64,000 nucleotides of DNA, taken from the NCBI GenBank assembly GCA_016926735.1, contig JAFGOA010000215.1:20578-84577 (forward strand), in the 5' to 3' direction. The notes beneath the pieces are model-generated. The model ran no database searches, had not been told where the DNA came from, and saw only the letters and a program-made list of their open reading frames with translations. How positions within the stretch are numbered: position 1 is the first letter of the stretch; every line of letters begins with the position of its first letter. Positions 9,147-37,857 of the stretch are shown one piece after another. The position numbers and the translations under genes are program-made. This DNA is from Promethearchaeota archaeon (GTDB lineage Archaea > Asgardarchaeota > Lokiarchaeia > Sigyniarchaeales > SOKP01).

Positions 9147-9261
9147 GATTTTTTATAATTCTATTTAAAAAATCCACAAAATATACTTTTTTACAACTAG
9201 GTATTAAATTTAAATACAATGTAAATTTCTTTTGAGATTAAATATGTATGAGTAGATCAGA

Positions 9262-10704
9262 ATATTAGTAAGTAACATACTTCTATTAATTTGTTTTATT
9301 TCTGTTATTTTATTAATTTTAACTGAAAAATTAAATAGAGCAGTCGCAGCTTTAATGGGTGCGGTGATAGCTTATTTTATTTTAATTTTTATTGAAGGTT
9401 ATGATTTTTCAGTTATAGTTGATTTAATGTTTAGCACTAATGAAAATTATGTAAATTTACATTCGCTTATTTTAATAATTAGCATGATGATAATTGTGCA
9501 AATATCACATGAAGCAGGATTGTTTCAATTTATATCTATATATTTGATTAAATTTTCAAAAGGAAAACCAATTCCATTAATGATTATATTATGTTGTGTG
9601 ACTGTCTTAATTTCAGCGATTCTTAATAATATTTTAACAGTAATAATTCTAATCCCCCTTACTATAACTATATCAAGAATTCTTAATATAAATCCTACAC
9701 CTTATATTCTTACCCAAGCTATTTTGGTAAATGTTGGAGGTACATTATTTTCGATATCTTCAATTCCAAATATTTTAATAGTAACATATGCAGGAATAAG
9801 TTTTTTGGATTTTTTAATTAATGTAGGATTACTATCTTTATTGGTTTTTAGTCTTACTTTAGGATTTTTCATAATTTTATATAAAAAAGAAATGAAAATT
9901 CCAGAAGGATCTTTGAATGTTTTAAAGGAGTATAATGTTTGGAATGTTGTTCAAAGTAAAAAACTCTTATATCTCTCAATGATATCTTTATTATCATTAT
10001 TTTTTCTATTCATAGTTGTACCTTCAGATATAATATCCCCTGATATTATAGCTTTAACCTTAGGAGTTTTAATGATAATATTAAGTAAATTAGAACCAAA
10101 AGAAATATTCTCTAAAATTGACATTGAATTAATCCTTTATTTAATAGGAATCTTTGTTATTGCAGGCTCTCTAGAACTACTTAATGTTTTAGATATTGTA
10201 GGAGAATTTATTTCTCAAGTTGGAGGAGGAGATACATATGTTTTATTATTACTTGTTTTATGGATATCTGCTTTTTTGAGCTCTTCCATTGATAATATTC
10301 CTATAACAAAAGTGCTTATTCCTGTAATCGGTGAAATTCCAGGAATAACATCTGAAACAATAAGAAAAAGATTATATTATTCTCTCGCATTAGGTGCAAA
10401 TTGGGGGGACAATCTTACACCTCTTGGTGATAATATCCTTGTTGTAAATATTGCAGAACAGAATAAAAGGCCAATTTCATTCAAACAATTTATGAAGTTA
10501 GGATTTGTAACAACTATTTATCAATTGTTAATAATAACAATATATTTTACCCTTATTTTTAAATTTATAACAGGTATTATAATTTTATTTGTAATTATTG
10601 TTATAATTATTCTTATTTACTTTTTTATGAAAAAAGGTCCAAAAAAGATAAGAAATAAAACAATAAATACTCTATCTAATCTTAGACATTATATAATTAG
10701 GTGA
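9262..10704 (+). CDS. ArsB/NhaD (SLC13/P-protein-like) ion transporter; N-terminus extends upstream of ATG 9355
   Basis: SAILNN, NVGG..SI..IPNIL, SSSIDNIP, ALGANWGDNLTPLG, ~12 TMs. In-frame upstream sequence ILVSNILLLICFISVILLILTEKLNRAVAAL encodes TM1 and runs back to a TAG at 9253 with no ATG/GTG/TTG. Confidence 0.8.
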   Translation: MLVSNILLLICFISVILLILTEKLNRAVAALMGAVIAYFILIFIEGYDFSVIVDLMFSTNENYVNLHSLILIISMMIIVQISHEAGLFQFISIYLIKFSKGKPIPLMIILCCVTVLISAILNNILTVIILIPLTITISRILNINPTPYILTQAILVNVGGTLFSISSIPNILIVTYAGISFLDFLINVGLLSLLVFSLTLGFFIILYKKEMKIPEGSLNVLKEYNVWNVVQSKKLLYLSMISLLSLFFLFIVVPSDIISPDIIALTLGVLMIILSKLEPKEIFSKIDIELILYLIGIFVIAGSLELLNVLDIVGEFISQVGGGDTYVLLLLVLWISAFLSSSIDNIPITKVLIPVIGEIPGITSETIRKRLYYSLALGANWGDNLTPLGDNILVVNIAEQNKRPISFKQFMKLGFVTTIYQLLIITIYFTLIFKFITGIIILFVIIVIIILIYFFMKKGPKKIRNKTINTLSNLRHYIIR

Positions 10705-10710
10705 TAATAA

Positions 10711-11346
10711 ATAGTATTCAAAAGTATTGAAAGAATTAAAAACTCTTTACCCGAAATAGTACATATTGTAATGTTTTACAATAATGGTATAGTATTCCAA
10801 ACAACATTCTCTCACGATGAGATAAATATTCCTAAATTGGGAGAACATATTTCTGAATTATTAAATCAAATTCGGGCTGTTTATACTATCTGTAATATCG
10901 AAATACAGAATTATAATAAATTAATATTTGAAACCGAAAATATTTCAACAATTGTTCTCAAACTTGGAGAAGATAGTAATATTGCTCTTTTTTTTAAGAA
11001 TGAGGATACTAAAGAACTTAAAATTAAATCAATTCAACGATATCTTAATCGAATTGAAGAACTTATTGATATGGATGCCAAAGAACTGATCCTTCAAGAA
11101 ATCTTAGTCGAGGAAAATAACATTAAAGATCTTCAGATTATTTTAGATTCAAAATATAATGAAATAAAAGAAATTAAATCCGAATTGGGTAATATATCAG
11201 AAGAAGAGAATCTTCAAAATTTGGATACTAAGGTAAGTAAAGAATACGAACAACTTGAAAAAGATTGTAAGAATATAGAAAAAGAAATTTTAAATAAAAA
11301 GGAAAAGATTCAAAGTCTGAAAAAAAAGATGAATGAAGAGAATTAA
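10711..11346 (+). CDS. Roadblock/LC7-like domain plus C-terminal coiled coil; probable ATA start
   Basis: AGGTGA at 10699-10704, ATA at 10711 directly after in-frame TAA; IERIKNSLPEIVHIVMFYNNG..KLIFETENISTIVLKL fits a Roadblock-like pattern; E/K-rich heptad tail. Confidence 0.6.
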   Translation: MVFKSIERIKNSLPEIVHIVMFYNNGIVFQTTFSHDEINIPKLGEHISELLNQIRAVYTICNIEIQNYNKLIFETENISTIVLKLGEDSNIALFFKNEDTKELKIKSIQRYLNRIEELIDMDAKELILQEILVEENNIKDLQIILDSKYNEIKEIKSELGNISEEENLQNLDTKVSKEYEQLEKDCKNIEKEILNKKEKIQSLKKKMNEEN

Positions 11347-11374
11347 AATCTAGAATTTAAAAATCTTATATCTA

Positions 11375-12601
11375 TTATTTAAGATAATTTCGAATAGATG
11401 ATAACGTGAAAATTATAATTGAGCATCCCATTATTATAAAAGTTATTTTAATATTATATAAAAAAATTAATCCAAACATGGGTATAATAATACCTGGTAT
11501 CATTTTTATCATATTTAGTACACTAAAACTTAAGGCTCTATTCTCTCCATCAAGTTCCTTATTAAATTGATTTAAAAAAAAGATATATCTAGAGAATCCT
11601 AATCCAAGAATAATGATAATTATAATAAGATTCAATGGAATAGAGGAAATGATTCCTAATATAACAAAAAGAATTCCTAAGAAAAGAGTTACCAATAAAA
11701 GTGCATGTTTTGAATTAATTATCTTTTTTTTAGATATTATGTACGTAAAAAATACCTCTGAGAAAATAATCATAGCTTCTATAAAACCATAGTATATCAA
11801 TGATATCTTTAATTCTATTAAAAGATAAAATTGATAATTTATATATAATGAAAAAATAATAATTTCAATTATTAATATCTCTTTTAATAATATTTTTATA
11901 ATGTTACTCTTTCCAAGAATCTTTAAACCTAATTTAATTTGTTTAATGAAATTTTTTCTATTTTTAATCTTCAAAGGTTTTAGCTTTTCCTTTATTGTAA
12001 ATGCTATTATTAAACTGATAAAATAAGGAAGACTCATTAATATTACAACAGCTTGTAATGAAATAAGGGAACCTATTAATGACCCTATAGGTGAAGAAAT
12101 AATTATTCCTATAAGAAAAATATTACTTGATTTCCCTATTGTTTTTGAAAATTCCTTCTCTAGTCTTTGATATTTCATTGAATCATGCAATAATGCTTCT
12201 GTAGATCCAGATATAAGAGCGGTTCCTAATGCAAAAAATGTTTCACCAATATAAAAAAAATAAATATTAATAAGTAATCCATATATCAATGCCCCAATTG
12301 TGCTAAAGAAGCTTGCTAATATAAGACTCTTTCTTTTACCAAAATAATCCGCAATCATTCCACAAGGAATTTCAAGAATAAATATCAATAAATAATGATA
12401 ACTTTGTAAGATATTATAGTCTATCAAAGTGAATTTTGCATAATTTAAATAAAAGGGTACAATTACTCCTGAGAGAAAATAAAATCCAATAAAAAATTGA
12501 AATATAAAGATTTTCCTTATATTTATAATATATAATTTACTAATTTTTTTTGTTTGCTCTGAAATTATATGTTGATTTTCTAAATCTTCTAAAACAATCA
12601 A
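11375..12601 (-). CDS. Major facilitator superfamily transporter
   Basis: LEIPCGMIADYFGKRKS (motif A), SGSTEALLHDS, ~12 TMs. Confidence 0.9.
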   Translation of the reverse strand: MIVLEDLENQHIISEQTKKISKLYIINIRKIFIFQFFIGFYFLSGVIVPFYLNYAKFTLIDYNILQSYHYLLIFILEIPCGMIADYFGKRKSLILASFFSTIGALIYGLLINIYFFYIGETFFALGTALISGSTEALLHDSMKYQRLEKEFSKTIGKSSNIFLIGIIISSPIGSLIGSLISLQAVVILMSLPYFISLIIAFTIKEKLKPLKIKNRKNFIKQIKLGLKILGKSNIIKILLKEILIIEIIIFSLYINYQFYLLIELKISLIYYGFIEAMIIFSEVFFTYIISKKKIINSKHALLLVTLFLGILFVILGIISSIPLNLIIIIIILGLGFSRYIFFLNQFNKELDGENRALSFSVLNMIKMIPGIIIPMFGLIFLYNIKITFIIMGCSIIIFTLSSIRNYLK

Positions 12602-13080
12602 ATATATCCCCTGCTTAAGGTTATTCTTAATTAAAATAATTGATTATGAAAAAATATGAGATGATTTCCCTTTTATCTTCCTAATTTTAGTAGAATATTC
12701 AAAATTAACTAAATAATTAAATGAAGATTTTAATAGATGCTAGAAGAACAAATTAAATATGATCTACTAGCTTTAATTTTAAGTAATGTATAATGTCAAG
12801 TACTTATTATAAAACAATAGTATTTATTCTTCATAAGAAATTACACTTAATAATGATCTTTAGTGATTGAGTGAAAATGTTGTTTCTATTCTCAATATTT
12901 ATAGAAATAATTAATATATATAATTATTTGCTTTTCTTCTCTAATTTAAAACAATAGTTTTCAAAGATATTCTATGATTTCAAAGATATTATTGTTTAAT
13001 TTTAATTTTTTCATTAAAAAAAGTTTTATAATTAAAAATTAAAGATAAAAAAAATTTATGTTGATGATATCAATCAGTTC

Positions 13081-13944
13081 TTATTCAGATGATTTAGTTT
13101 TATTATTTTTTAAAATAAAATATAATGCCCCTAATTCTCCATTAATTTCAGATAACTCACTAACAGATTCATAGTTTTGATTGTAAATACCTATTAAAGA
13201 AAATCCTCCTAATGAAGTCAATTGTTTGAAATCTTCAAATGTCCATAATCTCAAGTTATGAATTTCTTTTATTTCTTTTTTTTTGCCATTTTCTCTAATA
13301 GTCATCTGAAAATCAATTTCTCGGATTTTTTTTTCTATATCATATCTTTTAATAATCCATTGAGCTTTTATATCTATATTATCTTCTTTAATATACCATA
13401 TATCATCTTTTTTGATTTCATTTTGAATATTTTCACATTTGCAACTAATCTCGGCGATATAAATTCCCCCATCTCTTAAGGATTTATTCATGGTTTTAAA
13501 ATGAGAAATAATATCTTCGTCTGTTCTTAAATATCCCAAACTATTAATGCAAATAAATGCTGCGTCTGATTCTTTTTTAAATATTTTATTTCTCATATCT
13601 CCAGTTATGACTTTATAATTATTCCTTATTTCGATGTTTTTTTGTAATCTTTGATCACAATATTTTATCATTTTCTTACTAATATCATATCCTTTTATAT
13701 AATAACCATGATTTGCAAATTTTTCTATAAATATCCCAGAACCACACGCAGGTTCTATAATCCTTTTAACATCAAAATTACAATATAATCTAAATATAGA
13801 TCTGAAAAATTCAAAATCATTATCAATATTTCTTTTAAACACCAAATCATAATATTTTGGTAATTCATAGAACCTATATTGTTCACTATTTCCTAATTTA
13901 TTATTTTCTAAACTTACATTACTTTTTGTTTCTGTAATACTCAA
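13081..13944 (-). CDS. Class I SAM-dependent methyltransferase
   Basis: YYD, IIEPACGSG, GYDIS..M, GDMR, NSLGYL, LRDGGIY. Confidence 0.9.
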   Translation of the reverse strand: MSITETKSNVSLENNKLGNSEQYRFYELPKYYDLVFKRNIDNDFEFFRSIFRLYCNFDVKRIIEPACGSGIFIEKFANHGYYIKGYDISKKMIKYCDQRLQKNIEIRNNYKVITGDMRNKIFKKESDAAFICINSLGYLRTDEDIISHFKTMNKSLRDGGIYIAEISCKCENIQNEIKKDDIWYIKEDNIDIKAQWIIKRYDIEKKIREIDFQMTIRENGKKKEIKEIHNLRLWTFEDFKQLTSLGGFSLIGIYNQNYESVSELSEINGELGALYFILKNNKTKSSE

Positions 13945-13962
13945 AAACCTCTAAAATTTATC

Positions 13963-14523
13963 CTATTTAATATTAATTATCTTTTTCTCTTTCTTTGGAA
14001 TTTCTTTTTTAGGTATTATAATCTTTAAAATACCTTTCTCTAAGGTAGCATCTACATTTTCTTCATCAATCTCATTAGGTAGGCTGAAACAACGATAATA
14101 TTTTGCAGAACGATATTCTTTTCTTACTATATCTCCCTTATCTTCTTGGTTTTTTATTTCCTTTATTTCTCCTTTTATTTCAAGATTTCCATCTATTAAA
14201 GATATTTCAATATCTTCCTTATCTAATCCAGGTAATTCGGCTGTTAAATTAAAATTTTTATCATCTTCTATAATATTGGCTAGGGGGGTCCGAAATATTG
14301 GTAGATTATTATGTAATTGGAGTTGTAATGTAGGAGAGATATTTCTGTTAAAGGGATAAAACCATTCATTAAAAAAATTTCGATGAAGGTTATCAAAAAG
14401 TTGATCCATATTTTGAAATAAAGAAAAAGGATTTGCTCTTCTGATAAAAAACTCTTTTTTTTCTTTTGTATCTTCTTGAGAGTTTGAGCTATCTTTCTTT
14501 ATCTTTATCTTTTTTTCATCCAT
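13963..14523 (-). CDS. hsp20: Small heat-shock protein (Hsp20/alpha-crystallin)
   Basis: AELPGLDKEDIEI, LEIKGE, YRCFSLP, ATLEKGILKIIIPK. Confidence 0.95.
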   Translation of the reverse strand: MDEKKIKIKKDSSNSQEDTKEKKEFFIRRANPFSLFQNMDQLFDNLHRNFFNEWFYPFNRNISPTLQLQLHNNLPIFRTPLANIIEDDKNFNLTAELPGLDKEDIEISLIDGNLEIKGEIKEIKNQEDKGDIVRKEYRSAKYYRCFSLPNEIDEENVDATLEKGILKIIIPKKEIPKKEKKIINIK

Positions 14524-14686
14524 TTTAATTCTCTTTATTTTTTACTTTAAATTATCTGAATTATAATTATTATTGATCTAAACAAAGTATTTAAACGTTG
14601 TCATATGAAAACTTATGATCAGATCGATACATTTTTAAACTTTATTAATATTTAATTATACTATAGAAAATATATTTTTCATTTAG

Positions 14687-15271
14687 GTGAATGTAATAAC
14701 AGAAAAGAAACTAAAGAATAAGACTAATTTTTTAGGTTTTAGGCTCTCTGAAAAGTTATTATTAAAATTAGATATTATTGCTAATCAAGAAAATAAAACT
14801 CGAGGATTAATTGCAAAAGAAGCTGTAAAACAATGGATCAATATCAAACAATATGAGGCCGGTAATGAAATGATTACAATCCCGAAAAAATTATTTTTAG
14901 ATTTAATTGAATCTCATAGTGAAGAATCATTAGATAATATAACTGGGAAGATGGTTGTTTTATTATCTGATTTTATCAAATTCATATTTAATAAACCTTT
15001 AAATATAAAAACATTAGAAGATTATGCTGTTTTTTCATCTAATTTTTTTGGGAAAAAAGGACTAAGATGGTTCAATAATATCGATGTAAAAATAGAGAAT
15101 GGTTTTTATATCTTTAGAGGATTGCATGATTTAGGAGAAAATTTTTCATTCTTTTTTGTGAAAATTTACAGAAAATTACTATCTGAACATTTTAATTTCG
15201 ATTTTATTACAAAAATAGAAGAATCATCACCATTTCTTATTAATCTAAAATTTAAATACAAAAATGATTAA
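14687..15271 (+). CDS. Ribbon-helix-helix (CopG-like) regulator with C-terminal ligand-binding-like domain
   Basis: FLGFRLSEKLLLKLDIIANQENKTRGLIAKEAVKQW RHH pattern; divergent from hsp20. Confidence 0.6.
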   Translation: MNVITEKKLKNKTNFLGFRLSEKLLLKLDIIANQENKTRGLIAKEAVKQWINIKQYEAGNEMITIPKKLFLDLIESHSEESLDNITGKMVVLLSDFIKFIFNKPLNIKTLEDYAVFSSNFFGKKGLRWFNNIDVKIENGFYIFRGLHDLGENFSFFFVKIYRKLLSEHFNFDFITKIEESSPFLINLKFKYKND

Positions 15272-15303
15272 AAATATTATTCAATAAAAAAAAATCGTTA
15301 AGG

Positions 15304-16485
15304 GTGTTAAGAATTAGTTTAAGAGGTTTATTTTTCTTTAGGTTTGATCAAAGAATTGGACCTTCTATAATTTTTAAATTACCAATAGATTTCGATAATA
15401 CAGTTATTTCAAAACTACTATCATTAATGGATTTAGAGGAAGAAAACATCTTTATTCATTCATTTGAAAATTATAAAAGTATCAACTTAATATTTAATAT
15501 AGAGAGCAAATATACAAGAGGAAATAAAGAGACACTTCAAATTTCATTAGTAATTGATAGAGATTCTAAAATAGATGAGAGCTTCTTAGAAAAACTCCTT
15601 GTGAAATTTATCAGATCAATTAAAGAAATAACAGATTTGGATAACTTCTTCTTTTCTATTTCTACTGAACATGAAAAACACTTTCAAATACAAGAACAAT
15701 TGATTTTATTATTTCAAACATTTTATCAATCTACTAAAACAACAATAGATATTTTAATTGAGAAAGAACATGAATATCAAACTTTATTTGAAAACGCTAG
15801 AGATGCTATAATACTGTTTGATATTAATTCATTTGAAATAATAGATATGAATAGTTATACTGAAACAATATTTGATCTACCAAAAAATAAAATCTTAGAA
15901 CAAAAAATTACTGAACTTTTAAAAATCAAAGAACATGAAATATTTAAAAATAAATTACTTAAATTAAGTTCAGAAGAATTTTCTGAATTTATTGAATTAA
16001 ACTTCAAAAATAATAGAGGACGAGAAATCTTTCTTGAAATAAATGCTAATAGTATAGGTGAGAAAAAAAAAAATATAATCCAAATTGTAATTAGAGATAT
16101 AACTAAAAGAACACTTCTTCAAATTGCGTTAAATGAACGTTTAAAAGAACTAAACGCATTATATAAACTTTCAAAATTGATGGACAAAAAGAATTATTCA
16201 ATACATCAAATCTTGGATAAATGCTTGATCATTATACAAAATGCTATGAAATTTCCTCATATTGCGCGTGTTAGAATTCTATTTAATAAGGAAGTATGGA
16301 TTAGTAATGATTTTAAAGAAACTGAGTGGAAAATATCTACTCATATTAAAATATACAATAAATTATTAGATCTCGAAGTTTTTTATATTGAAGAAAAAGA
16401 ATTTTTAGAAGAAAAATTGACTTTTTTATTTGAATTTGCTCATAGATTAAGATTATCCATATTAAATAAGATTGGAGTCCTCTAG
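15304..16485 (+). CDS. Longin/uDENN-like domain + PAS + GAF-like sensor protein
   Basis: N-terminal FFFRFDQRIGPSI..FIHSF..TRG; PAS YQTLFENARDAI..RDITKR; ERLKELNALY..FP GAF-like tail; no kinase domain. Confidence 0.65.
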   Translation: MLRISLRGLFFFRFDQRIGPSIIFKLPIDFDNTVISKLLSLMDLEEENIFIHSFENYKSINLIFNIESKYTRGNKETLQISLVIDRDSKIDESFLEKLLVKFIRSIKEITDLDNFFFSISTEHEKHFQIQEQLILLFQTFYQSTKTTIDILIEKEHEYQTLFENARDAIILFDINSFEIIDMNSYTETIFDLPKNKILEQKITELLKIKEHEIFKNKLLKLSSEEFSEFIELNFKNNRGREIFLEINANSIGEKKKNIIQIVIRDITKRTLLQIALNERLKELNALYKLSKLMDKKNYSIHQILDKCLIIIQNAMKFPHIARVRILFNKEVWISNDFKETEWKISTHIKIYNKLLDLEVFYIEEKEFLEEKLTFLFEFAHRLRLSILNKIGVL

Positions 16486-18429: not shown

Positions 18430-18596
18430 TTTTTTTTCTTTTCTTTTTTTTAGCATAATACATAATTTATAGATTATAGATTTTTTTAAAGAATTCAAAT
18501 TATTGATATAAAGTGAATAAAAATTAATTAAAATTTATAATACAAATTATTTTATAGATTGTAAAACATAATACTTAGATTGTTATTAAATTAAAG

Positions 18597-19160
18597 GTGA
18601 TAAAAATAACAGAAAAAATACAAAAAACAAACTACAGAACTACAAATTTACTAGTAGGACTAATATTGGTATTTATAGCAATAATTGCGTTGTTTTATCC
18701 TGATATTACTAATCAAATTGTAATAGTTATTCTTTCAATGGGTTTATTATTCATTGGTACAGCAAGAGTAGTGAATGCAGTATCAAAAGGAGAATTTAAA
18801 AATATTGACGTAGAGGCACGATTTCTTTCAGGAGTAATAGCAATAATAGTTGGAATCACTGCAATAATAACGATTATCCGGGATACCGGATTAGCTCTTG
18901 ATATTTGGTATTATTTATTAGCTACTGCTCTTTTAATTATCGGATTATCCAGGATAATTGTTGGATTAAAAATGAAAGAAGAAGTTGAAAAATGGTTTAA
19001 ATATTATACTTTATTTACAGGCATAGCAACTATCATATTTTCGATTATAGTTTATATAATTCCAGAAGCTGGTGGTATATATATTGTTGTATTAATATCA
19101 TTATCATTATTGCTGAATGGAGTCCATAAGATAATTCTTAGTATTATAGGTCCAAAATAA
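18597..19160 (+). CDS. HdeD/DUF308-like membrane protein
   Basis: Six TMs arranged as three repeated hairpins (G..I..A..P...L..G..RI). Confidence 0.65.
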   Translation: MIKITEKIQKTNYRTTNLLVGLILVFIAIIALFYPDITNQIVIVILSMGLLFIGTARVVNAVSKGEFKNIDVEARFLSGVIAIIVGITAIITIIRDTGLALDIWYYLLATALLIIGLSRIIVGLKMKEEVEKWFKYYTLFTGIATIIFSIIVYIIPEAGGIYIVVLISLSLLLNGVHKIILSIIGPK

Positions 19161-19166
19161 TTATTT

Positions 19167-20246
19167 TTACAACCATTTTTTTTTTTTAAAATATAAAATC
19201 ATTATAATAGCAATAAGAATCATCAATAATATTAAAATTGGATATCCAAATGGAGATTTTAATTCAGGCATATCAAGGAAATTCATTCCATAAAATCCTG
19301 CAAGAAATGATAAGGGTATAAATACTGTAGATATAATAGTAAGTACTTTCATGATATCATTCATTTTGTTGCTTACACTTGATAAATACAGATCTAACAT
19401 TCCGGTAATGATATCTCTACTGTTTTGTAATGAATCATTTATAAGATAAATATGATCATAGATATCCCTTAGATAAAATTGCATTTTTTCACTAGTTAAT
19501 ATTTGATCTTCACGTTGAAATTTATTAATTATTTCTCTTACAGGCCATATCGATTTTCTAATTTCAATAATATTTCTTTTTAATTTATATATAGAATGTA
19601 ATATTTCTATATGAGGTTCTTCTATTAATTTATCTTCTATAAGTTCTATAGTTTCATTAATCGTTTCTTGTATAATTATATAATCATCAATAATAATATC
19701 TAAAAGTGTATATAGTAAATAATCTGCGCCCATCTCTCGAACTCTCCCTTTTGGTATCATAATTCTATCAAATATTGGATTAAAAATATCAGATTCTTGT
19801 TCTCGAAAGGTAATTACATACTTTTTCCCTAAAATTAGACTAATCTGTTCTGTACCAAATACCTTGTCTTCATTATTCCAAATCACTTTTTTTAAAACAA
19901 TAAAAGTAAACTCTCCATAATGTTCATATTTTGGCGCTTGATTTGTATTTAAGATATCCTCTAAGACTAGAGGATGAAAACCAAATAAAAAACCTAAATC
20001 TTCAATTACGTTTATATCTGTTATTCCATCAATAATTATCCATCTAATTTTTAATGAATCTATTTCACTAATTTCTTTTTCTATTTTAAGATATTCTTTT
20101 ATTATATATTCATTTTTATCATAATCTATTACTTTGATCTTTGTATGCTCCATTTTTTTTTCTGCTGTAACTATTAAACTCCCTGGAGGTAAACCAGCCT
20201 TCTTCCTTGATTTTTTTAAGTTTTTTTTTTTACTTATTTTAAAAAT
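19167..20246 (-). CDS. corA: CorA Mg2+/Co2+ transporter; probable ATT start upstream of the annotated ATG 20153
   Basis: FHPLVLEDI, QAPKYE, YLRDIYDH, MKVLTI, GFYGMNF..MPEL. Upstream in-frame KKAGLPPGSL (CorA N-terminal motif) lies between ATG 20153 and an in-frame TGA at 20255. Confidence 0.92.
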   Translation of the reverse strand: MFKISKKKNLKKSRKKAGLPPGSLIVTAEKKMEHTKIKVIDYDKNEYIIKEYLKIEKEISEIDSLKIRWIIIDGITDINVIEDLGFLFGFHPLVLEDILNTNQAPKYEHYGEFTFIVLKKVIWNNEDKVFGTEQISLILGKKYVITFREQESDIFNPIFDRIMIPKGRVREMGADYLLYTLLDIIIDDYIIIQETINETIELIEDKLIEEPHIEILHSIYKLKRNIIEIRKSIWPVREIINKFQREDQILTSEKMQFYLRDIYDHIYLINDSLQNSRDIITGMLDLYLSSVSNKMNDIMKVLTIISTVFIPLSFLAGFYGMNFLDMPELKSPFGYPILILLMILIAIIMILYFKKKKWL

Positions 20247-20394
20247 ATTTTTTCACCAGATTTTATTCTTTTAATGAATTAGATTCTTGATTATGATTTA
20301 TACTAATTTTTTTGTAATATTTAAAATTAATTTTTATTTTAGTTGGTTAAAATAATATCTATATAATAATATTAATTAGAAAAAGAGTCTTTTT

Positions 20395-25573: not shown

Positions 25574-25924
25574 TTAAAGTTTTGCTTCCAAAGATTTAGT
25601 AGCAGAATGTAATTTTAGATTGATAATTCCTAATTTAGCATCAACGGTAGTGATGATACAAAGAATATTACCTTTTACTTCCGAAAACAATATTTTACCA
25701 TTTTCACTTTCGATAATTGCATTATTAAATTTTCCTTGTTCTAATTCTTTAGTTGCTCTCTGACTTGCTTTAAGAATAAGGGTTACCATTGCTGCTACAG
25801 CATCCGGATCAATCCATCCGGGTACTGCACTACCTTTAATTAAACCAAATTTTTCAATTAAAGCTGCTCCATGAACACCTTTTATTGATTTTAAACTCTC
25901 AAGAACTGCTCCTATTTCACTCAT
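25574..25924 (-). CDS. Roadblock/LC7 (MglB-like) domain protein
   Basis: LESLKSIKGVHGAALI..G, AVAAM, ELEQG, IIESENGKI, KLGIINL. Confidence 0.9.
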   Translation of the reverse strand: MSEIGAVLESLKSIKGVHGAALIEKFGLIKGSAVPGWIDPDAVAAMVTLILKASQRATKELEQGKFNNAIIESENGKILFSEVKGNILCIITTVDAKLGIINLKLHSATKSLEAKL

Positions 25925-28696: not shown

Positions 28697-28854
28697 CTCA
28701 AAATATTAATGCAAATATACTATTACAATTTATTGAAAAGTTGAAATAATATAAAATTAAGTCTAAAAATAGTTTTTTCTATACTTAATAAACATTAATT
28801 TAATAAATTTTCGAGCATATATATAAATGATAACCAAAAAAAGGTGATATAACT

Positions 28855-29049
28855 ATTAGAGTTAGAGCCTGTAATAAATGTAAAGAATATATATCAATTG
28901 ATGTAGAAGATCTCACAGGACAGGAAATGGTACAAGAATTTGATGGAGCTCATCGTAATCATACTGTTGTAACTGTGAATCTTAAAGAAGTTGAAAAAGA
29001 TTTCGAAAATGTAGAAGAGAAAATAAGATCAGCTTTTATTGAAATTTAA
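28855..29049 (+). CDS. Unannotated 64-aa CxxC..HxxH zinc-finger-like protein; probable ATT start
   Basis: AGGTGA at 28842-28847, ATT at 28855: (M)RVRACNKCKEYISIDVEDLTGQEMVQEFDGAHRNHTVVTVNLKEVEKDFENVEEKIRSAFIEI*; in-frame stop at 28831. Confidence 0.7.
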   Translation: MRVRACNKCKEYISIDVEDLTGQEMVQEFDGAHRNHTVVTVNLKEVEKDFENVEEKIRSAFIEI

Positions 29050-29639: not shown

Positions 29640-29755
29640 TTAAATTTTTTATTTGATAGTAATTAGAAATAACAATTAAAAAAGCTTGTTAATATTATAT
29701 TAATCTGTGCTAAATTAATAATTTATAAAACTAACAAAAAATGATGTGATTTCAG

Positions 29756-31300
29756 ATTTCTTCAGAAGAAGATTTTAATGATATAGAAGCTTTAAAAGAT
29801 TCCGAAAGTACTTCGACCAAAAAACATGATTTATTAAATTTTGAGACAAAAATTGATTATAAATATACTCTTAAAAAAAAAAAACAAAATAAAGAGTCAT
29901 ATTTGGTTGATGCTTTTTTTTTTATTCCTAAATCACTTCAAATAAATAAAGGTACATATAATAAAGAACAATTTTTTTATGATTTGCATAATCGTATTCG
30001 ATTTAAGACTCCTAAAATGTTTATAAAAGATATATTAGATGATGATAATATATTATCTCCTCTCAGTATAATTAAAAAGGCTCTTAATCAATCTGTGAAT
30101 AAAACTCATATTGATAATTTAATACAAAGGGAATTAAGAATATTAGCTAGTATTATAAAGACTTCATTAAAAGATAAATTACACTTTTTTCTAAGAAATT
30201 ATAAATTACAGAAGAAAATAAGTTTTTTATTAAATATCTTAGAAGAATATATATTAATTATAAGAGAATTTAAGGATCAACTAATAAATCTAAAGATATT
30301 AATAATAAACTATAATCCAAGTGAGGAATTAAATGATACAATAAAATATTCTGAGGAATATATAAGTTTGCAGATTGAAATGTTTTTTACTAAAATATTG
30401 ACAAAATTAGGTGAATCTTTATATGAATCTCAAAAAAATTTATTAATACAATCTATAGAAAATGAACAATCTTATAGAATAGAACAAAAAAGCAGATTAA
30501 TCATTGATGAAAGAAGTGATAATGAAGCTTTTATTTATCATGAAGGAATAATGAAAAAATATGTTCAAGGTGTTCTTTATTTGAAAAAAAAAGAGAAAAA
30601 ACCACAAGAAACCTCTTTAGAATTGTTTTATTCTATAGGTGCGGGATTAGCTATGTTTATTTCTCTTTTTTTTGGAATTTTTTTATATTCACATTTAGAG
30701 GAATATTCACTTCCTTTTATTGGTTTAGCTGTTGTAGTTTATACTTTAAGAGATAGAATTAAAGATCATATTCGAAAATTTTCTCAAAAAGCAATTATAT
30801 TATATCTTCCTGATAAAAAGACAGACATTATGGATGGATTTTATAATGAGAAAATAGGTATTTGTAGGGAGAAAATGTATTTCCCAGAAATTAATAAAAT
30901 TCCTAAAGAGATTTTAGATATACGAAAGTTAAGTAATAAATCTTCTATAGAAACTGAAGGAAAACCAGAGGTATGCTTAGCTTATAGAAAAAAAATAACA
31001 CTCTCAAGTAAGAAGATTAATAAAATGCATACAAGACATAAGGATATTTTGGATATTACTAAATTTAATATTCATTATTTTTTACATTATGCTGATGATC
31101 CTTATCATAATATCGTTTCTTGGCGTTCTACAGATAAAAAATTAGAGAAATATTCAATGTCTAAGGTTTATCATTTAAATATAATCTTTAAATTAACAAG
31201 TTTTGGAAATAATAATGTTAAAGAAGTATTATATCAGAAATATAGAATAATATTAAACCAAAATGGTATTAAAAAAGTATTAGCTGTAATTATCAACTAA
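29756..31300 (+). CDS. Hypothetical protein with central 2-TM hairpin; probable ATT start upstream of TTG 29903
   Basis: Frame open upstream to TGA 29747, encoding KKHDLLNFETKIDY; FFFIPKSL; two TMs (IGAGLAMFISL, FIGLAVVVYTLRDRIKD). Confidence 0.65.
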   Translation: MSSEEDFNDIEALKDSESTSTKKHDLLNFETKIDYKYTLKKKKQNKESYLVDAFFFIPKSLQINKGTYNKEQFFYDLHNRIRFKTPKMFIKDILDDDNILSPLSIIKKALNQSVNKTHIDNLIQRELRILASIIKTSLKDKLHFFLRNYKLQKKISFLLNILEEYILIIREFKDQLINLKILIINYNPSEELNDTIKYSEEYISLQIEMFFTKILTKLGESLYESQKNLLIQSIENEQSYRIEQKSRLIIDERSDNEAFIYHEGIMKKYVQGVLYLKKKEKKPQETSLELFYSIGAGLAMFISLFFGIFLYSHLEEYSLPFIGLAVVVYTLRDRIKDHIRKFSQKAIILYLPDKKTDIMDGFYNEKIGICREKMYFPEINKIPKEILDIRKLSNKSSIETEGKPEVCLAYRKKITLSSKKINKMHTRHKDILDITKFNIHYFLHYADDPYHNIVSWRSTDKKLEKYSMSKVYHLNIIFKLTSFGNNNVKEVLYQKYRIILNQNGIKKVLAVIIN

Positions 31301-31405
31301 AAAAACTAAAGCTCTTTTTATAATTAAGATTATGAAATTTAATATTCATTAAAATTTGAATATCTCATACAATTAAATTGAAGATAATTAAATTCCAAAA
31401 TAATA

Positions 31406-32509
31406 ATGATAAGTATAAATTGGGAAGGTAAAGATAAATTTATTAGTAATATAGAAAAAAGAAAACAATATTTTAGTAATATATTTAAAAATATCACTTC
31501 TTGTTTAGATAATAGTATAACAAATGAACGTTATACAAAATGTAGTATTAAAAATTGGAATAGAAAATTATTTTGGGGAAATAATATTGAAATAATATAT
31601 TATCTTTTAAATTTTCTAAAAGATAAAATTGATTTAGTATATATAGATCCTCCCTTTTTTACAAGATCAAATTATAAAATCCAAATAAACGAGGATAAAA
31701 ATCTTTATGAAGATATTGCATATTACGATACTTGGAATAAAGATATTAATTCTTATTTACAAATGCTCTATAAGAGACTGTTCCTTATAAAATCTCTTCT
31801 TTCTGAAAAGGGACTTATATTTGTTCATTTAGATTGGCATGCTAATCATTATGTAAAGATAATTTTAGATGAAATTTTTGGAACTGAAAATTTTATTAAT
31901 TCAATTGTTTGGTATTATTATAATAAATATAGTGCTGGAAAAATGCAATTACCAAGAGCTCATGATGATATTTTAGTATATTCTAAAACCAAACATTATT
32001 CTCTTAATGAAATTAGAGTTTTAAGAAAAAAACCCATAAAACAATTAAAAAGAATAAATGTAAATGGGACCCTTAAGAATCTTAAAGATAGATATGGGAA
32101 GGTAATATATAGAACTGTTAAAGATAAAAAAATAGACGATGTGTGGAAAATTCCTTGCCTACAACCGGCATCAAAACACTGGTTGGGGTATCCTACTCAA
32201 AAACATCCTAAGTTGTTAGAAAGAATTATTAAATTAGGTTCTAATGAAAATGATCTTATCGCAGATTTTTTTTGTGGTTCAGGAACAACCTTAATTACAG
32301 CTGAAAGGTTAGGAAGAAAATGGATAGGATCAGATATATCAAAATACGCTATATATTTAACAAGAAAAATGCTCTTAAATCACTATGAAGAATTTGAGAA
32401 TTTAAATAATAAAAATTTAGAATTATGGGCTCATTTGGATGAAGAGAAGAAGAAAATTATTAATTCAAATTTTTTTAAGAAAGAATTAAAAATACAGAGG
32501 ATAAAATAA
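31406..32509 (+). CDS. N6/N4 DNA methyltransferase, beta class (type III Mod-like), orphan
   Basis: YIDPPF, FVHLDWH, DDVW, YPTQK, DFFCGSGTT; no restriction subunit adjacent. Confidence 0.9.
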   Translation: MISINWEGKDKFISNIEKRKQYFSNIFKNITSCLDNSITNERYTKCSIKNWNRKLFWGNNIEIIYYLLNFLKDKIDLVYIDPPFFTRSNYKIQINEDKNLYEDIAYYDTWNKDINSYLQMLYKRLFLIKSLLSEKGLIFVHLDWHANHYVKIILDEIFGTENFINSIVWYYYNKYSAGKMQLPRAHDDILVYSKTKHYSLNEIRVLRKKPIKQLKRINVNGTLKNLKDRYGKVIYRTVKDKKIDDVWKIPCLQPASKHWLGYPTQKHPKLLERIIKLGSNENDLIADFFCGSGTTLITAERLGRKWIGSDISKYAIYLTRKMLLNHYEEFENLNNKNLELWAHLDEEKKKIINSNFFKKELKIQRIK

Positions 32510-32661
32510 TCCACAAATAAATTATCAAGAATAGAGATTAGGATTTTTAAAGATAATAAAAAATGGATAACTCAATTAATATTTCTATATCCCTTTTTAT
32601 AGAATATCAAATAGAAAAAGTTTAAAGAATTGTAAAATTAAAATAATAAAAATATAGAAAT

Positions 32662-33336
32662 ATGAATGAGTCATTTAATACAATTCTTTTAAGATTAAAT
32701 ATGACGGATGAAGATTCTAGTAAAAGTAAAGATAAACAAGAGAATTCAAATATTTCCACCTCATTGGAGAAAAAAGAACAATATAATGATTTATCTGAAG
32801 AAAAATTGATCGAAAAATTATTAGATACTGATAAAAAATTATCATTAGCTAAAAAAGAATTAATTCAATCAAAAGAAGAAAAAAAAAATTGGCAAGAAAA
32901 ATATACTCGACTTCAAGCAGAATTTGAAAACACTCAAAAGAGATGGGAAAAATCAAAAGATCAACTTAAAAATCAATCAAAAGGAAATATCATAAAAAAT
33001 TTTCTTCCTTTATATGATTCATTTAAACATGCATTAAAAAATGAAGCAGAACATCACATCTTAGAACAATTTTTTAAACAATTTATGAATATTTTAAAAA
33101 ATTTAGGTGTAGAGATAATGATTATAAATGAAAAAGAGATATTTGATTATAATAAACATGAAGCCATAACAACTATGCAGAACAATGACCTTCCTAATAA
33201 TACAATTATTGAGGTTATTCAAGATGGTATTAAATTAGATAAAGATATTCTAAGATATGCAAAAGTGATTGTCAGTCAAAAACAAAAACTTAACAATAAT
33301 AATGAATCCTCTAAAGAGGAGCAACTTAAAGAATAA
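32662..33336 (+). CDS. grpE: Nucleotide exchange factor GrpE (start may be ATG 32701)
   Basis: RLQAEFEN..KR, FLPLYDSF, FDYNKHEA, EVIQDG..LRYAKVIV. Confidence 0.93.
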   Translation: MNESFNTILLRLNMTDEDSSKSKDKQENSNISTSLEKKEQYNDLSEEKLIEKLLDTDKKLSLAKKELIQSKEEKKNWQEKYTRLQAEFENTQKRWEKSKDQLKNQSKGNIIKNFLPLYDSFKHALKNEAEHHILEQFFKQFMNILKNLGVEIMIINEKEIFDYNKHEAITTMQNNDLPNNTIIEVIQDGIKLDKDILRYAKVIVSQKQKLNNNNESSKEEQLKE

Positions 33337-33385
33337 AAAATACTATATTTAACATTAAGATCGTTTAAAATCGTAAATTTCTTTA

Positions 33386-35581
33386 TTATTTTATAAAATA
33401 TTGATCACAAATTTTATCTAATTCTATTTTAGTCATATTAGACATTTCTACATAATTATTAGCTAACATTTGTAATTCTTGAAAAATTTGTTTATTATCT
33501 GTTATTTTAAAGAGTAATTTTTCTAATTTTGCCATTGCTGAATATGAATGCCCTTTGAAAACATATCCAAAGAGCAAATTCTCTTTTGATTGGAAAATTA
33601 TTAAATATTCCCCATGTCTTATTCTATCTATTGACCCTGATGATGAGAATGCTTCCTTTCCAAATATGTTAATTGCTGAAATAAACCCTGCAATTAAGTC
33701 ACTATCCTTAAAATGTATATCTTCAAATGATTTACTATACAAGCAATGACCATCTATTACTTTTAAAATAACAAGATAAATTGGATCATCAGCATTATTT
33801 GGTATATCATCTATTTTAGAACGTATCATTTTGGAAAATAAGAATTCATGTTTTGATTCATTAATTCTTTCTTGTAGGGGCATATTCATGGCCATTCTTT
33901 CTTCCCAGAGATCAATATTTGCTAATATTGAATCATGTTCATTAGAAATTTTATTAGCTAATAATTTTAACTCATGTTGATTTGCTATTTTTTGAGCCTT
34001 GGTTAGTAGTGCACGAGCCTCATCTATTTCTAATTTAATTAAGGCGATTTTTGCTTTTAAAAAATATGTTTCTGTTAATAAATTATATAAATATTGAGAT
34101 TGAGCGATTTTAAGAATTTGATTGGAGAGATCTTCAATTTCAGTAAGAATAGTTAGATCTCCGGTCAATTCTAATTCATATATTAATACTTCACATAAAT
34201 TGACCATTGCTTCTATAGATATTTCGTGTTCAATAATATTTTCTTTACTAATATCTTTAAAAATCAAAGCAGCTTGCATTTTATCTCGTAAACGTTCTTT
34301 GGATTTTAGAATAATTCCTTTAGTTAATCTGTATATTTGGTCTATTTGCTTATTATCAGAATTTTTTAAATTGATTTCATATAACTTCTCTAAATAATTC
34401 TCTAAGTTTTTTGAATCATCATTCTCAATTGATAAATGGATAAGATAATAATATGCTTTAGCTATTGAGATATTGAATCTATGAGTCCGCAATATTACAA
34501 TTTCTTCTTTATGTAATAATTCTAATGCTTCTAATAGATTTTTCTTAGCAATTTCGAATTCTCCTAGTTCTCCATATATTTTACCTATCGCAACCAAATA
34601 AATAGGTCTTAATCTCGCTTTATCATCAATTCCTATAGTATCCAGACTTTTTGTATATAATTCTAGACTCTTTTTTAATTCTCCCTTCTGATCATAAACC
34701 ATTCCCATAGAAAAATATGCATGGGCAATTTGATTAATAGAATTATTTTGTTCGTTTATTTTTAAAGTGTTTTTAAAAGATTCTAAAGCCTTTTCGAATT
34801 CTCCTTTTGTTAAATAATAATATCCAAGTAAATAATAACAATTTGCTTCTATATGTTTATAATTATTCTTTTTGGCGATTTTAAGAATATCATGTGCTTT
34901 TTTTTTTGTAAATTCTAAATCTCCTTCATGATATTTAACCCATCCCAAATTAATAGTATTCCAAATTATTCCGACTAAATTTTTTTTTTCTCTAGCTAAT
35001 TCTAGACTTTCTAAAGTATAATTTTGAGAAGCTTTAAAATCCCCTATATAGTACGTTAAAGTACCTAAGTTATATAATGTCCAAATTAATCCATAAGTAT
35101 CCTTAAGATCTAGTCTTATTTTATAACTTTTTTTAAAATATTCAATTGACTCACGTATTTTGTTCATATCATAGTAAATACGACCTTTTAAATAATAAAA
35201 ATATGCTTCTCTATATTTTATTTGTACTAAAGGCATATAATCTATATTATTTAATAATAATTCACCTTGACTTATCAGATCAAGGCATTCATTTATTATT
35301 GATAATTGAGAACCATTCTCTACGCATGCTATAATTGCATCAATTTCTCTTAGTAAATTAAAGCTTTCTTGAGCAAGTTTCATCATTTCCTGGGCCATTT
35401 TATAACCTTCTCTAAATTCACCATTATCTAAACAAATGAAACTTTGAACATATTTTTTAATCAATATATCATCATCAGAAAGTCCACTCTTTTTTTCTAT
35501 TGAATTAAGTAATTCAAGAGCCTCTTTAAATTGTCCATTAATTAAATTGTTTTCTAATTGTTCAATTTTAGAGTAAAACAT
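33386..35581 (-). CDS. TPR-repeat protein with C-terminal longin-like domain
   Basis: Multiple TPRs (LG..Y...G.F.KALE.F.K.L); C-terminal GHCLYSKSF..LIAGFISAINIFGKEAF..IDRIRHGEY. Confidence 0.8.
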   Translation of the reverse strand: MFYSKIEQLENNLINGQFKEALELLNSIEKKSGLSDDDILIKKYVQSFICLDNGEFREGYKMAQEMMKLAQESFNLLREIDAIIACVENGSQLSIINECLDLISQGELLLNNIDYMPLVQIKYREAYFYYLKGRIYYDMNKIRESIEYFKKSYKIRLDLKDTYGLIWTLYNLGTLTYYIGDFKASQNYTLESLELAREKKNLVGIIWNTINLGWVKYHEGDLEFTKKKAHDILKIAKKNNYKHIEANCYYLLGYYYLTKGEFEKALESFKNTLKINEQNNSINQIAHAYFSMGMVYDQKGELKKSLELYTKSLDTIGIDDKARLRPIYLVAIGKIYGELGEFEIAKKNLLEALELLHKEEIVILRTHRFNISIAKAYYYLIHLSIENDDSKNLENYLEKLYEINLKNSDNKQIDQIYRLTKGIILKSKERLRDKMQAALIFKDISKENIIEHEISIEAMVNLCEVLIYELELTGDLTILTEIEDLSNQILKIAQSQYLYNLLTETYFLKAKIALIKLEIDEARALLTKAQKIANQHELKLLANKISNEHDSILANIDLWEERMAMNMPLQERINESKHEFLFSKMIRSKIDDIPNNADDPIYLVILKVIDGHCLYSKSFEDIHFKDSDLIAGFISAINIFGKEAFSSSGSIDRIRHGEYLIIFQSKENLLFGYVFKGHSYSAMAKLEKLLFKITDNKQIFQELQMLANNYVEMSNMTKIELDKICDQYFIK

Positions 35582-35789
35582 GATTTAGCTAGATTGATTA
35601 TAAGATTAAAAATGATTTAATATATTCTTTTTACTGTAAAAATAATCTAAAATTCACCATAAAAAATTTTGCATTTTAATATTAAAAAATTAATTATACC
35701 GCTTATACCTATGAAAAAAATGATTTTCTATTTTTTTTATATTTTATTTAAATCTTATACTTATTAATAATATAATTTCTTCTGGCTTA

Positions 35790-36324
35790 TGCAACAATAA
35801 AAATATTAATCTTAAAACCTTTTATATATATAAATTGATATATTAGCTAGGTAAAATAAATGAGCGAAGGTCCTGATCTTCCTCCAATTCCCAGTATTGG
35901 AGAAGTACTAGGTAGGAAAGAACATTTTATACAAAAAGTAACAACTGTGATCAGATGCAAACAATGTGAGGGAAAGTACACAAGAATTTTTCAAAATGGA
36001 GATTATACTTTTAAAAAATTAGATAATGAAAATTGTCCAGAATGTAAAAAAAAAACACCCTCAATAATTGTAGAAATCTATTCAGAATGGATAAACCCTA
36101 AAAAAGAAAAATAAAATTTGTTGAAAACAGCAATGTATAATATTGGATTAGAAAAATAAATTGATCAAGCAGTCGCTAGAGACTTTAAGATACATAAAAT
36201 TAATAATGAAGATAAAAAAAACGATTCTTATAAAGCATTAGAATTTACGCTATCATTTAATAATATTGAAATAAAATATAAAAGAAAAGTAGAGAGTGAA
36301 AAATATCCAATAGTTCCGAAATTT
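35790..36324 (+). repeat. Copy 1 of a diverged ~0.53-kb direct duplication
   Basis: Aligns with ~37323-37857 (e.g. aggtcctgatcttcctccaattcccagtattggagaagtactaggtaggaaagaacattttatacaaaaagta is identical); left boundary approximate. Confidence 0.9.
35860..36114 (+). CDS. Small zinc-ribbon protein
   Basis: CKQC...CPEC; R.FQ.GDY.FK; IVEIY. Confidence 0.8.
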   Translation: MSEGPDLPPIPSIGEVLGRKEHFIQKVTTVIRCKQCEGKYTRIFQNGDYTFKKLDNENCPECKKKTPSIIVEIYSEWINPKKEK

Positions 36325-36330
36325 AAATAA
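36133..36330 (+). pseudogene. Truncated, nonsense-disrupted copy of the 37666-38139 gene
   Basis: MYNIGLEK then TAA at 36157 (TTA in the intact copy); homology ends after KYPIVP. Confidence 0.85.
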
Positions 36331-36413
36331 ATTTCATATAATTCCTACTATCATTCTTAAAATTTATTTCATGTAGTTTCTTCACATCAAAATAAAATTT
36401 AAAAGTCTTTTCT

Positions 36414-36707
36414 TTACAAAAATGATGAAAGTATTAAGATACATATATAAAAAGCGAAAAAATTCAACAATATTCCCCATATACCAGAGCCTTTCTTTTT
36501 AAAACATAATATGATAATCCCAAATATAAATCCTATAATTGATAACATAATTGGAATAAATATTAAATTTGGGAGTAAATACATTCCCATATTATGTGCT
36601 AGCAATATATCAATAAAAGGTAGATATAGAGATATAAAAGCTAGCAATATTGTCAATTTCTTATCCGCACGATTCATATTAGGAGTTTTATTTTTATTTA
36701 TATCCAT
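36414..36707 (-). CDS. Small 3-TM membrane protein
   Basis: Three hydrophobic segments; lies between the duplicated copies. Confidence 0.55.
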   Translation of the reverse strand: MDINKNKTPNMNRADKKLTILLAFISLYLPFIDILLAHNMGMYLLPNLIFIPIMLSIIGFIFGIIILCFKKKGSGIWGILLNFFAFYICILILSSFL

Positions 36708-36748
36708 ATTTATCCTCTTTTTTTTTTGATTTTAATTCCATATATAAT

Positions 36749-37261
36749 CTAGGTATACCCTGCAGGTGTTATTATAAATGAAAAAATAAATATAAAAATG
36801 TTAAGAATCCAAGAGGAATAAATAAAATAAGTAATAATTGACTCATCTGATGGGATTATAGATGAAAGAATTAAAAATGCTATTCCTATTAAAGATAGTA
36901 TAGTAATTGGTATTCTTTGATCTGAAATATTGTTAATATTGTAATACTGAAGGAGTGTAATCATCATAACATTTAGAGGAAAGATTAATGATATTATTAG
37001 GCATCTCCATCTTATATCAAGATTATTATTAACATATTTATCAACTTTTTCTTCTTTCTCTTCGTAGTTTTTCTTAAAAAGATTTATAGGAATTATAAAA
37101 CAATAGATTAGAATTAAGCCTATAGGGATACCTATTAAAGGAATAATTGGAGTGAAATAAAAAATGAAATAAATTAATATGATAGAAGAAATAACTATTA
37201 ATATTTCAGTAATTAATAGCATTATAATATGATTACTTCTTTTATTCTTTCCTTTTATCAC
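36749..37261 (-). CDS. Hypothetical membrane protein (~5 TMs)
   Basis: Hydrophobic segments separated by a charged loop. Confidence 0.55.
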   Translation of the reverse strand: MIKGKNKRSNHIIMLLITEILIVISSIILIYFIFYFTPIIPLIGIPIGLILIYCFIIPINLFKKNYEEKEEKVDKYVNNNLDIRWRCLIISLIFPLNVMMITLLQYYNINNISDQRIPITILSLIGIAFLILSSIIPSDESIITYFIYSSWILNIFIFIFSFIITPAGYT

Positions 37262-37322
37262 ATAAAAGATTATATTTAATCCTTAATAAATATGTTTGGA
37301 GGAAATATATTTTCTAGAAATT

Positions 37323-37857
37323 TACAACGATAAAAATATTAGCTTAAAAATTTTTAATATATATAAATTGAGATAATAGTAAGGAAAATAAAATTAGTAA
37401 AGGTCCTGATCTTCCTCCAATTCCCAGTATTGGAGAAGTACTAGGTAGGAAAGAACATTTTATACAAAAAGTATCCACTGTGGTTAGATGCAAACAATGT
37501 GAAAGAAAATACACAAGAAAATTCCAAAAAGGAGATTATACATTTAAAAAACTAAATAATGTTGAATGTCCTGATTGTAAAGAAAATCCATCATCGATAA
37601 TTGTAGAAATCTATTAAGAATGGATAAACCCTAAAAAGGAAAAATATAATTTGTTGATATAAATTATGTATAATATTGGATTAGAAAAATTAATTGATCA
37701 AGCAGTAGCAAGGGATTTTAAAATTCATAAAATTACTAATGAAGATAAAAAAAATGATTCTTATAAAGCATTAGAGTTTACATTGTCATTTAATAATATT
37801 GAAATAAAATATAAAAGAAAAGTAGAGAGTGAAAAATACCCAATAGTTCCGAGATTT
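37323..37857 (+). repeat. Copy 2 of the direct duplication
   Basis: Offset 1533 bp from copy 1; includes the promoter-like tatatataaattga. Confidence 0.9.
37393..37617 (+). pseudogene. Degenerate (or ATT-initiated, C-truncated) copy of the zinc-ribbon gene
   Basis: ATG->ATT at 37393; TCA->TAA at 37615 removes the last 10 aa; all four Cys retained (CKQC, CPDC). Confidence 0.75.

Follow-up and report, generated by a model that had tools for sequence, protein, structure and literature searches.

Introduction

AUA, AUU and AUC are recognised as start codons in mitochondria and Mollicutes (NCBI translation tables 2, 4 and 5) and belong to the start set of NCBI table 11. The Escherichia coli gene infC, which encodes the initiation factor IF3, uses an AUU start for autocontrol (Butler et al. 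1987, as cited in PMC4705826), and the eukaryotic factor eIF1 controls its own synthesis by way of an AUG whose Kozak context is poor (Ivanov et al. 2010, as cited in PMC6237735 and PMC4705826). In the archaea, a ‘rare’ ATT start has been proposed for the tubulin AtubA of the Kariarchaeaceae, a Heimdall-group Asgard lineage (PMC13394414), and in a ribosome profiling study of Haloferax near-cognate codons made up ~30% of the putative alternative start sites and were set aside (PMC7261190). Beyond that single-gene remark and the Haloferax note, a literature search found no systematic account of archaeal starts at ATH, by which ATA, ATT or ATC is meant here, in distinction to the canonical starts ATG, GTG and TTG. 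This article concerns a 64-kb stretch of DNA (the window; G000:C41:20578-84577) from the draft genome of an Asgard-type archaeon (G000; 3.88 Mb, 238 contigs, 26% GC), the lineage of which very probably begins dozens of ordinary genes, that of the initiation factor aIF1 included, at ATA, ATT or ATC a few bases past a ribosome-binding site. A Loki-type Asgard identity agrees with its Ras-family GTPases and Roadblock gene, and with relatives of 3-5.5 Mb.

The arrangement shares with infC a third-position near-cognate start behind a Shine-Dalgarno (SD) sequence, conservation within the lineage, and an AUU at the head of the gene for a start-policing factor. The factor here is aIF1, however, whose SUI1 fold is unrelated to IF3; AUH (the RNA form of ATH) would serve about one third of the strongly SD-led genes rather than one or two genes, and autoregulation is suggested by analogy. 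With eIF1, a homologue of aIF1, the resemblance is that the factor's own mRNA has a weak initiation site, but here the codon itself and the SD spacing of 9 nt, rather than the Kozak context, would make the site weak, and there is no scanning. AtubA is similar in that a plausible ribosome-binding site precedes the ATT, and a start there gives a protein from an Asgard metagenome-assembled genome the N-terminal strand that it otherwise lacks; that was a remark on one gene, whereas the pattern described here is genome-wide, statistically tested, phylogenetically conserved and extends to aIF1. Mitochondria, Mollicutes and table 11 offer the same codon set (ATN and NTG) and AT-rich genomes, but the starts here are SD-anchored and no change of genetic code or of initiator anticodon is seen. 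Three independent lines of evidence support ATA, ATT and ATC behind an SD as genuine starts in G000, all of them read from sequence: orthologue alignments, a decoy-controlled genome-wide enrichment and Pfam domain boundaries.

Candidate near-cognate starts in the window

The 16S rRNA of G000 ends in ...GGATCACCTCCT, and GGTGA is therefore a proper SD core; an rRNA model search of the genome did not find the 16S gene, of which the genome has no more than a 3' fragment, at the end of a contig. The original prediction held that five genes of the window have expected N-terminal sequence upstream of their first canonical codon. All the codons and spacings that it listed are present in the sequence, and in each of the five no ATG, GTG or TTG occurs from the upstream in-frame stop to the expected coding sequence. 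The five genes, a pair of paralogues and a control are laid out as follows.

Window 19167-20257 including the SD, minus strand: corA; SD GGTGA 20257-20253, spacing 6 nt, candidate start ATT 20246-20244, coding sequence to 19167; GLPPG motif 5' of the first ATG
Window 9262-10704, plus strand: CitMHS/ArsB-type permease; candidate start ATA 9262, degenerate SD (GAG..GA) 9249-9256; placed by Pfam CitMHS and alignment
Window 10699-10704, plus strand: SD AGGTGA, of which TGA is the permease stop codon
Window 10711-11346, plus strand: conserved 211-aa gene; candidate start ATA 10711, 6 nt past AGGTGA 10699-10704; the frame opens exactly at ATA
Window 28842-29049 including the SD, plus strand: 64-aa CxxC...HxxH protein; AGGTGA 28842-28847, 7 nt, candidate start ATT 28855; the first ATG would drop CxxC
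Window 29746-31300 including the SD, plus strand: 514-aa gene; GTGA 29746-29749, 6 nt, candidate start ATT 29756; conserved upstream motif
Window 37393-37617, plus strand: small zinc-ribbon-like paralogue; candidate start ATT 37393 behind AAGGA; no canonical start in frame
Window 35860-36114, plus strand: paralogue with ATG start, for comparison
Window 53734-54377, plus strand: rpl10e, the control; GTGA, 7 nt, ATG 53745

For the orthologue comparison the same genes were taken from up to 40 related genomes and the DNA 5' of each match was inspected; these genomes are related to each other, and counts across them are descriptive only. In corA, the extension that holds GLPPG is conserved in the family. 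Six family genomes lack a canonical codon before G(L/E/T)PPG and carry ATT, ATA or ATC 6-7 nt past GGTGA, and other genomes show ATG or TTG at that position. In the permease, where the SD is weaker, the Pfam CitMHS match begins in the first helix, at open-frame residue 18, and the first ATG is residue 34; conserved first-helix sequence precedes that ATG. Its ATA 9262 is aligned with ATG or TTG in several genera (G022, G016 and G023), with GGTGA, 6 nt and ATA in G010, and with AGGTGG, 7 nt and ATT in G011. A mini-ORF (ATG TAT GAG TAG; window 9244-9255) abuts the permease start. Readthrough of its TAG (ATG 9244 to TAG 9253) was considered and rejected because the in-frame ATG is missing in the sister species G003.

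The 10711 gene has its first helix and strand before the first canonical codon. At the position of the M in MVFK(S/N)I, G000 and three other genomes have ATA and G003 (91% identical) has ATG; two have CTG, two TTG, one GTG and the rest ATG, and the start codon of the orthologues usually lies 6-7 nt past GGTGA, often directly after a stop. The two orthologues with CTG (L036 in G007 and L042 in G024) have it at the start position 6 nt past (G)GGTGA, and the frame of L042 opens at it; CTG thus also seems usable as a start in the family of G000. The label ‘Roadblock-like’ first given to the 10711 gene finds no Pfam support, as the protein has no match. A genuine Roadblock/LC7 gene (Robl_LC7; Pfam E=3.7e-12), which begins at a normal ATG, is present at window 25574-25924 on the minus strand. 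The permease and the 10711 gene form a conserved adjacent pair with corA nearby in several genera (window 9262-11346 and 19167-20257; G010:C27:485695-488656; G001:C10:37287-46448), a gene order which suggests that the three may be a functional ion-transport cluster.

Homologues of the 64-aa protein, first described as a zinc-finger ORF, open with (M)R(A/V)RAC, encoded from ATT or ATA in eight genomes and from ATG or TTG in others. In the 29756 gene, an (R)HDxxNFE motif conserved order-wide sits 5' of the first canonical codon, TTG 29903. A mini-ORF (ATG ATG TGA; window 29741-29749) overlaps the GTGA of this gene and is conserved in G003. The zinc-ribbon-like paralogues are 80% identical, and ATT AGT AAA GGT CCT of the 37393 copy is aligned with ATG AGC GAA GGT CCT of the 35860 copy, which sets ATT 37393 against ATG 35860. 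The geometry of rpl10e is identical to that of the ATH genes. Pfam holds no family for the 10711, CxxC, 29756, 14687 (described below) and 37393 genes, and searches of the window with Rfam and ARAGORN gave no matches. For the window genes as a whole, the extensions are conserved in the relatives, and the aligned first codon alternates among ATG, TTG, GTG, CTG, ATA, ATT and ATC, 5-7 nt past GGTGA.

Enrichment and domain boundaries across the genome

Two tests restricted to ORF openings were applied to G000; they replaced a search with relaxed SD words taken without context, in which the signal was swamped by coding occurrences. In the first, the codon 6 nt past GGTGA was counted in the 44 ORFs, each 100 codons or longer, whose frame opens directly after an in-frame GGTGA, and was ATT in 13, ATG in 10, ATA in 5, TTG in 4 and ATC in 2; in most of the ATH cases the first canonical codon is 15-165 codons downstream. 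In the second, again for ORFs of at least 100 codons, codons no more than 12 codons from the ORF opening were scored when an SD run of 5 nt or more preceded them at an aligned spacing of 5-7.

ATG: observed 90, expected 14.4
TTG: observed 33, expected 4.7
ATT: observed 46, expected 19.2 (p=1.3e-7)
ATA: observed 51, expected 18.4 (p=2.9e-10)
ATC: observed 5, expected 4.4

The genome-wide count proposed in the original prediction thus finds ATT and ATA enriched beyond chance, and the AT-rich decoy codons AAT, TAT, TTT and TTA at or below expectation. The excess amounts to ~60 ATH starts against ~107 canonical ones, or about one third of the strongly SD-led starts. Spacing is alike at 5-7 nt for ATG, TTG, ATT and ATA, and the mean SD run shows no clear difference (5.7-5.8 for ATH, 5.6 for ATG), so the idea that a stronger SD compensates for ATH was rejected.

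A strong SD stands before only ~3% of first ATGs in G000, which makes SD-led genes a minority, and most genes of this genome are probably leaderless or use another signal. The SD-led ATG and TTG starts are often operon-internal (~45% lie within 30 nt of an upstream stop). One ORF on another contig (C50 ~76372) opens LKGGVPGNK... without a start. A mixture estimate from leader lengths, which had put the non-canonical genes at ~15%, was rejected because ORFs with long leaders but no SD are for the most part spurious antisense frames.

Domain boundaries were examined for 20 ATH candidates in which the next canonical codon follows at a distance of 15 codons or more. In 18 of them the Pfam domain begins at profile positions 1-8, 3-29 residues past the ATH codon and upstream of that next canonical codon. 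The families represented are aIF5A, ThiD, Kae1, Memo, MTHFR, TetR, two Ras GTPases, two ABC ATPases, TFB, a GPN GTPase, L21e, XPD, a flavodiiron protein, an amino-acid kinase, PPAT and a NifX-like protein.

GTG codons inside the Shine-Dalgarno

Three further genes of the window had been called from a GTG which, as originally noted, lies within (A)GGTG(A) itself, with an in-frame ATA or ATT five nt (aligned) later.

Window 14685-15271, plus strand: AGGTGA 14685-14690 and gene; GTG 14687 within the SD, probable start ATA 14696
Window 15302-16485, plus strand: GGGTG 15302-15306 and PAS-domain gene; GTG 15304 within the SD, candidate start ATT 15313
Window 18595-19160, plus strand: AGGTGA 18595-18600 and DUF308 membrane protein; GTG 18597 within the SD, candidate start ATA 18606

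Of the explanations that compete with ATH initiation, the one which survives best, unlikely as it is, takes the GTG (or TTG GTG) inside the SD as the true start of these three genes and of the ribosomal protein L21e, with ATA or ATT as nothing but codon 4. GTG is an accepted archaeal start, and the alignment of the 14687 gene does not separate GTG from ATA: ATA stands where several homologues have ATG, 10 codons before NFLG, and the homologue in G001 has no canonical start, so ATA 14696 is the probable start of a gene that stays ambiguous between the two. The orthologue of the 15304 gene in G003 (87% identical) reads GTG TTA TAA ATA, in which a stop separates the GTG from an ATA that aligns with ATT 15313. 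ATA 18606 is aligned exactly with the ATG of paralogues (ITEK against MDEK, both 13 codons before SN(I/L)L), and in G003 the codon between GTG and ATA changes from I to G and the downstream sequence is identical. L21e, the seventh family compared, has ATA or ATT as its first codon in six family genomes and ATG, TTG or GTG in others, and its ATA is likewise aligned with ATG or TTG of homologues. A GTG start would, moreover, be without an SD of its own, and would leave unexplained why ATA occupies the position 5 nt past GGTGA in 22% of cases against a background of 4.7%.

Initiator tRNA and aIF1

The initiator tRNA and aIF1, which the original prediction had named for inspection, were both located. 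The initiator tRNA (G000 C69 ~8430-8570) is ordinary, with a CAU anticodon, A1:U72 and a GGG/CCC anticodon stem. Its gene is interrupted twice, after position 37 and in the T-loop, and was missed by ARAGORN and Rfam because of these two introns. An altered genetic code or variant initiator was set aside, as the only initiator-type stem-loop has CAU; G000, a draft that is incomplete for tRNAs, yielded none with UAU, GAU or AAU as anticodon. About 21 tRNA genes are packed into 6.5 kb of another contig (G000 C157, 7086-8394 and 12331-13605), among them tRNA-Ile(UAU) and the only CAU tRNA found by ARAGORN; this array may belong to a mobile element or a virus, or may be contamination from binning.

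The proposed mechanism is as follows. The duplex between the SD and the anti-SD (16S 3' end, here in the form ...GGAUCACCUCCU) would set the P site ~5-7 nt past GGUGA, and initiation would take place there at AUG, UUG or GUG, also at AUA, AUU or AUC, and occasionally at CUG. The ordinary CAU initiator presumably reads AUH with one mismatch, which would give N-terminal Met. Strong AT mutation pressure (26% GC) may have turned ATG into ATA or ATT, a change that the initiation machinery would tolerate.

A different decoder, either an elongator tRNA-Ile or a second initiator giving N-terminal Ile, or else termination-reinitiation after an upstream ORF, is a very improbable substitute for this mechanism. 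For the former, tRNA-Ile(UAU) is present in the C157 array, but the initiator-like stem-loops that would read ATH were not found. For the latter, the 10711 gene starts 6 nt past the permease stop, and mini-ORFs of 2-3 codons precede the permease and the 29756 gene; against it, G003 lacks the in-frame ATG of the permease mini-ORF, and ATH starts are found inside operons less often than ATG starts, with 15 of 64 lying within 30 nt of the stop of an upstream same-strand ORF compared with 40 of 90 for ATG, a difference on which reinitiation coupling was rejected.

The factor aIF1 is encoded by a single gene outside the window.

G000 contig C86, ~5600-5930 (locus L162): aIF1 (SUI1); candidate start ATT 9 nt past GTGA; no ATG, GTG or TTG before the zinc knuckle

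ATT or ATC is the sole option in 15 of the 18 family genomes examined, five codons before ICPxC and 9 nt past a conserved AAAGGTTGTGA, which is replaced by CCGTGA in the genus of G000 itself. Elsewhere, TTG, GTG or ATA stands at this place in the sister family, with ATG once, and a GC-rich family has ATG. In the proteins of G000 and G002, the two from this genus, basic loop 1 reads RKW-K/R-K against RKW-G-K/R in other family members, and GAGGT stands in place of the CASGGT found elsewhere; their SUI1 HMM scores are among the lowest. The loop-1 site corresponds to the R31/Y32/K34 region of Pyrococcus aIF1 (PMC6237735). Sulfolobus aIF1 rejects AUU (PMC4705826), and because of this, and of the autocontrol of infC through AUU and of eIF1 through poor context, it is reasonable to infer that the AUU start of aIF1 may act as feedback on start-codon stringency. 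The AUU together with the long 9-nt spacer would provide a negative loop such as that of the bacterial infC AUU, and start-codon selection in the lineage would be relaxed. A wider proposal is possible if on balance doubtful: that this loop, with its suboptimal spacing, sets stringency for a translational regulon of ~60-150 AUH genes (aIF5A, TFB, Kae1, L21e and small GTPases among them), the output of which would rise when aIF1 is low.

Public annotation and downstream starts

The suspicion of systematic mis-annotation is borne out by exact look-up of the public proteins of the contig, in which the products of four of the genes are truncated. The record for corA has 328 aa and begins at M34, that for the 10711 gene has 191 aa from an internal ATG, that for the 29756 gene has 465 aa from TTG, and that for the 18597 gene has 156 aa. 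The permease record (482 aa) begins at ATC 9256 read as M; the alignment favours ATA 9262.

It is highly improbable that such records are right and that the genes start at the next downstream ATG, GTG or TTG, with ATH behind SD-like words as a coincidence of AT-rich DNA. The short forms are those in public use, and ATT and ATA each make up ~5-6% of codons, so that ~19 SD+ATT and ~18 SD+ATA are expected by chance, but the decoy codons, which share that composition, are not enriched behind the SD. Downstream starts would also cost Ras GTPases their P-loop, TFB its zinc ribbon, PPAT its HxGH region, TetR its helix-turn-helix, L21e most of its length and corA its GLPPG, and the upstream extensions are conserved as protein across genera, with canonical first codons in relatives. 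Least probable of all is that ATH is an artefact of sequencing or assembly, or is restored to AUG by third-base mRNA editing, for which the sole reason considered (A-to-I editing could make AUA read as AUG) found no support, since genomes of other species, assembled independently, show the same ATH codons, AUU occurs as often as AUA, and editing of U to G is not known.

Distribution among relatives

ATH initiation behind an SD appears to extend beyond G000. In G010, from another genus of the family (0.4 Mb), ATT was observed 8 times against 1.4 expected and ATA 5 times against 1.1, an ATH share of 0.37. The signal is weaker in the sister family, represented by the complete genome G032 (31% GC), where over the 1.2 Mb scanned ATA (12 against 2.9 expected) and ATC (5 against 1.5) are enriched, ATT is not, and the share is 0.17. 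More distant families use canonical starts, mostly ATG, in the gene families examined (corA, the 10711 gene, the permease and the CxxC/29756 genes). A pure effect of GC content was rejected, as the sister family is also AT-rich (28-36% GC at aIF1 loci, 31% in G032) yet has a lower ATH share.

Weight and meaning of the finding

Several points tell against near-cognate initiation as a frequent event. The evidence is a comparison of DNA sequences alone, from which a canonical start may still be read where an in-frame GTG or TTG lies inside the SD (the 14687 gene and L21e). Only one expected CAU tRNA besides the initiator was found in the draft genome, and a second initiator is thus conceivable. 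Since SD-led genes are a minority, ATH starts touch perhaps ~2% of genes, which is a minimum, as weak SDs are uncounted. About 40% of raw SD+ATH matches are expected by chance, and single calls without orthologue or domain support are therefore unsafe.

Gene finders limited to ATG, GTG and TTG truncate, extend or lose ATH-started genes. The aIF1 gene of G000 has no callable ORF and would be missed entirely by a standard caller; comparisons of Asgard genomes can therefore take present genes for missing and list clipped proteins. In the search for eukaryote-like proteins, for which these genomes are mined, the loss of a first strand or P-loop leads structure prediction and expression work astray. 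If AUH initiation is as frequent here as proposed, it would be the first archaeal case of frequent third-position near-cognate initiation, and it would offer a testable analogue of IF3 and eIF1 autoregulation in the closest relatives of eukaryotes. The aIF1 loop, if it exists, would be a prokaryotic equivalent of the near-cognate initiation controlled by eIF1 in eukaryotes, and possibly its forerunner.

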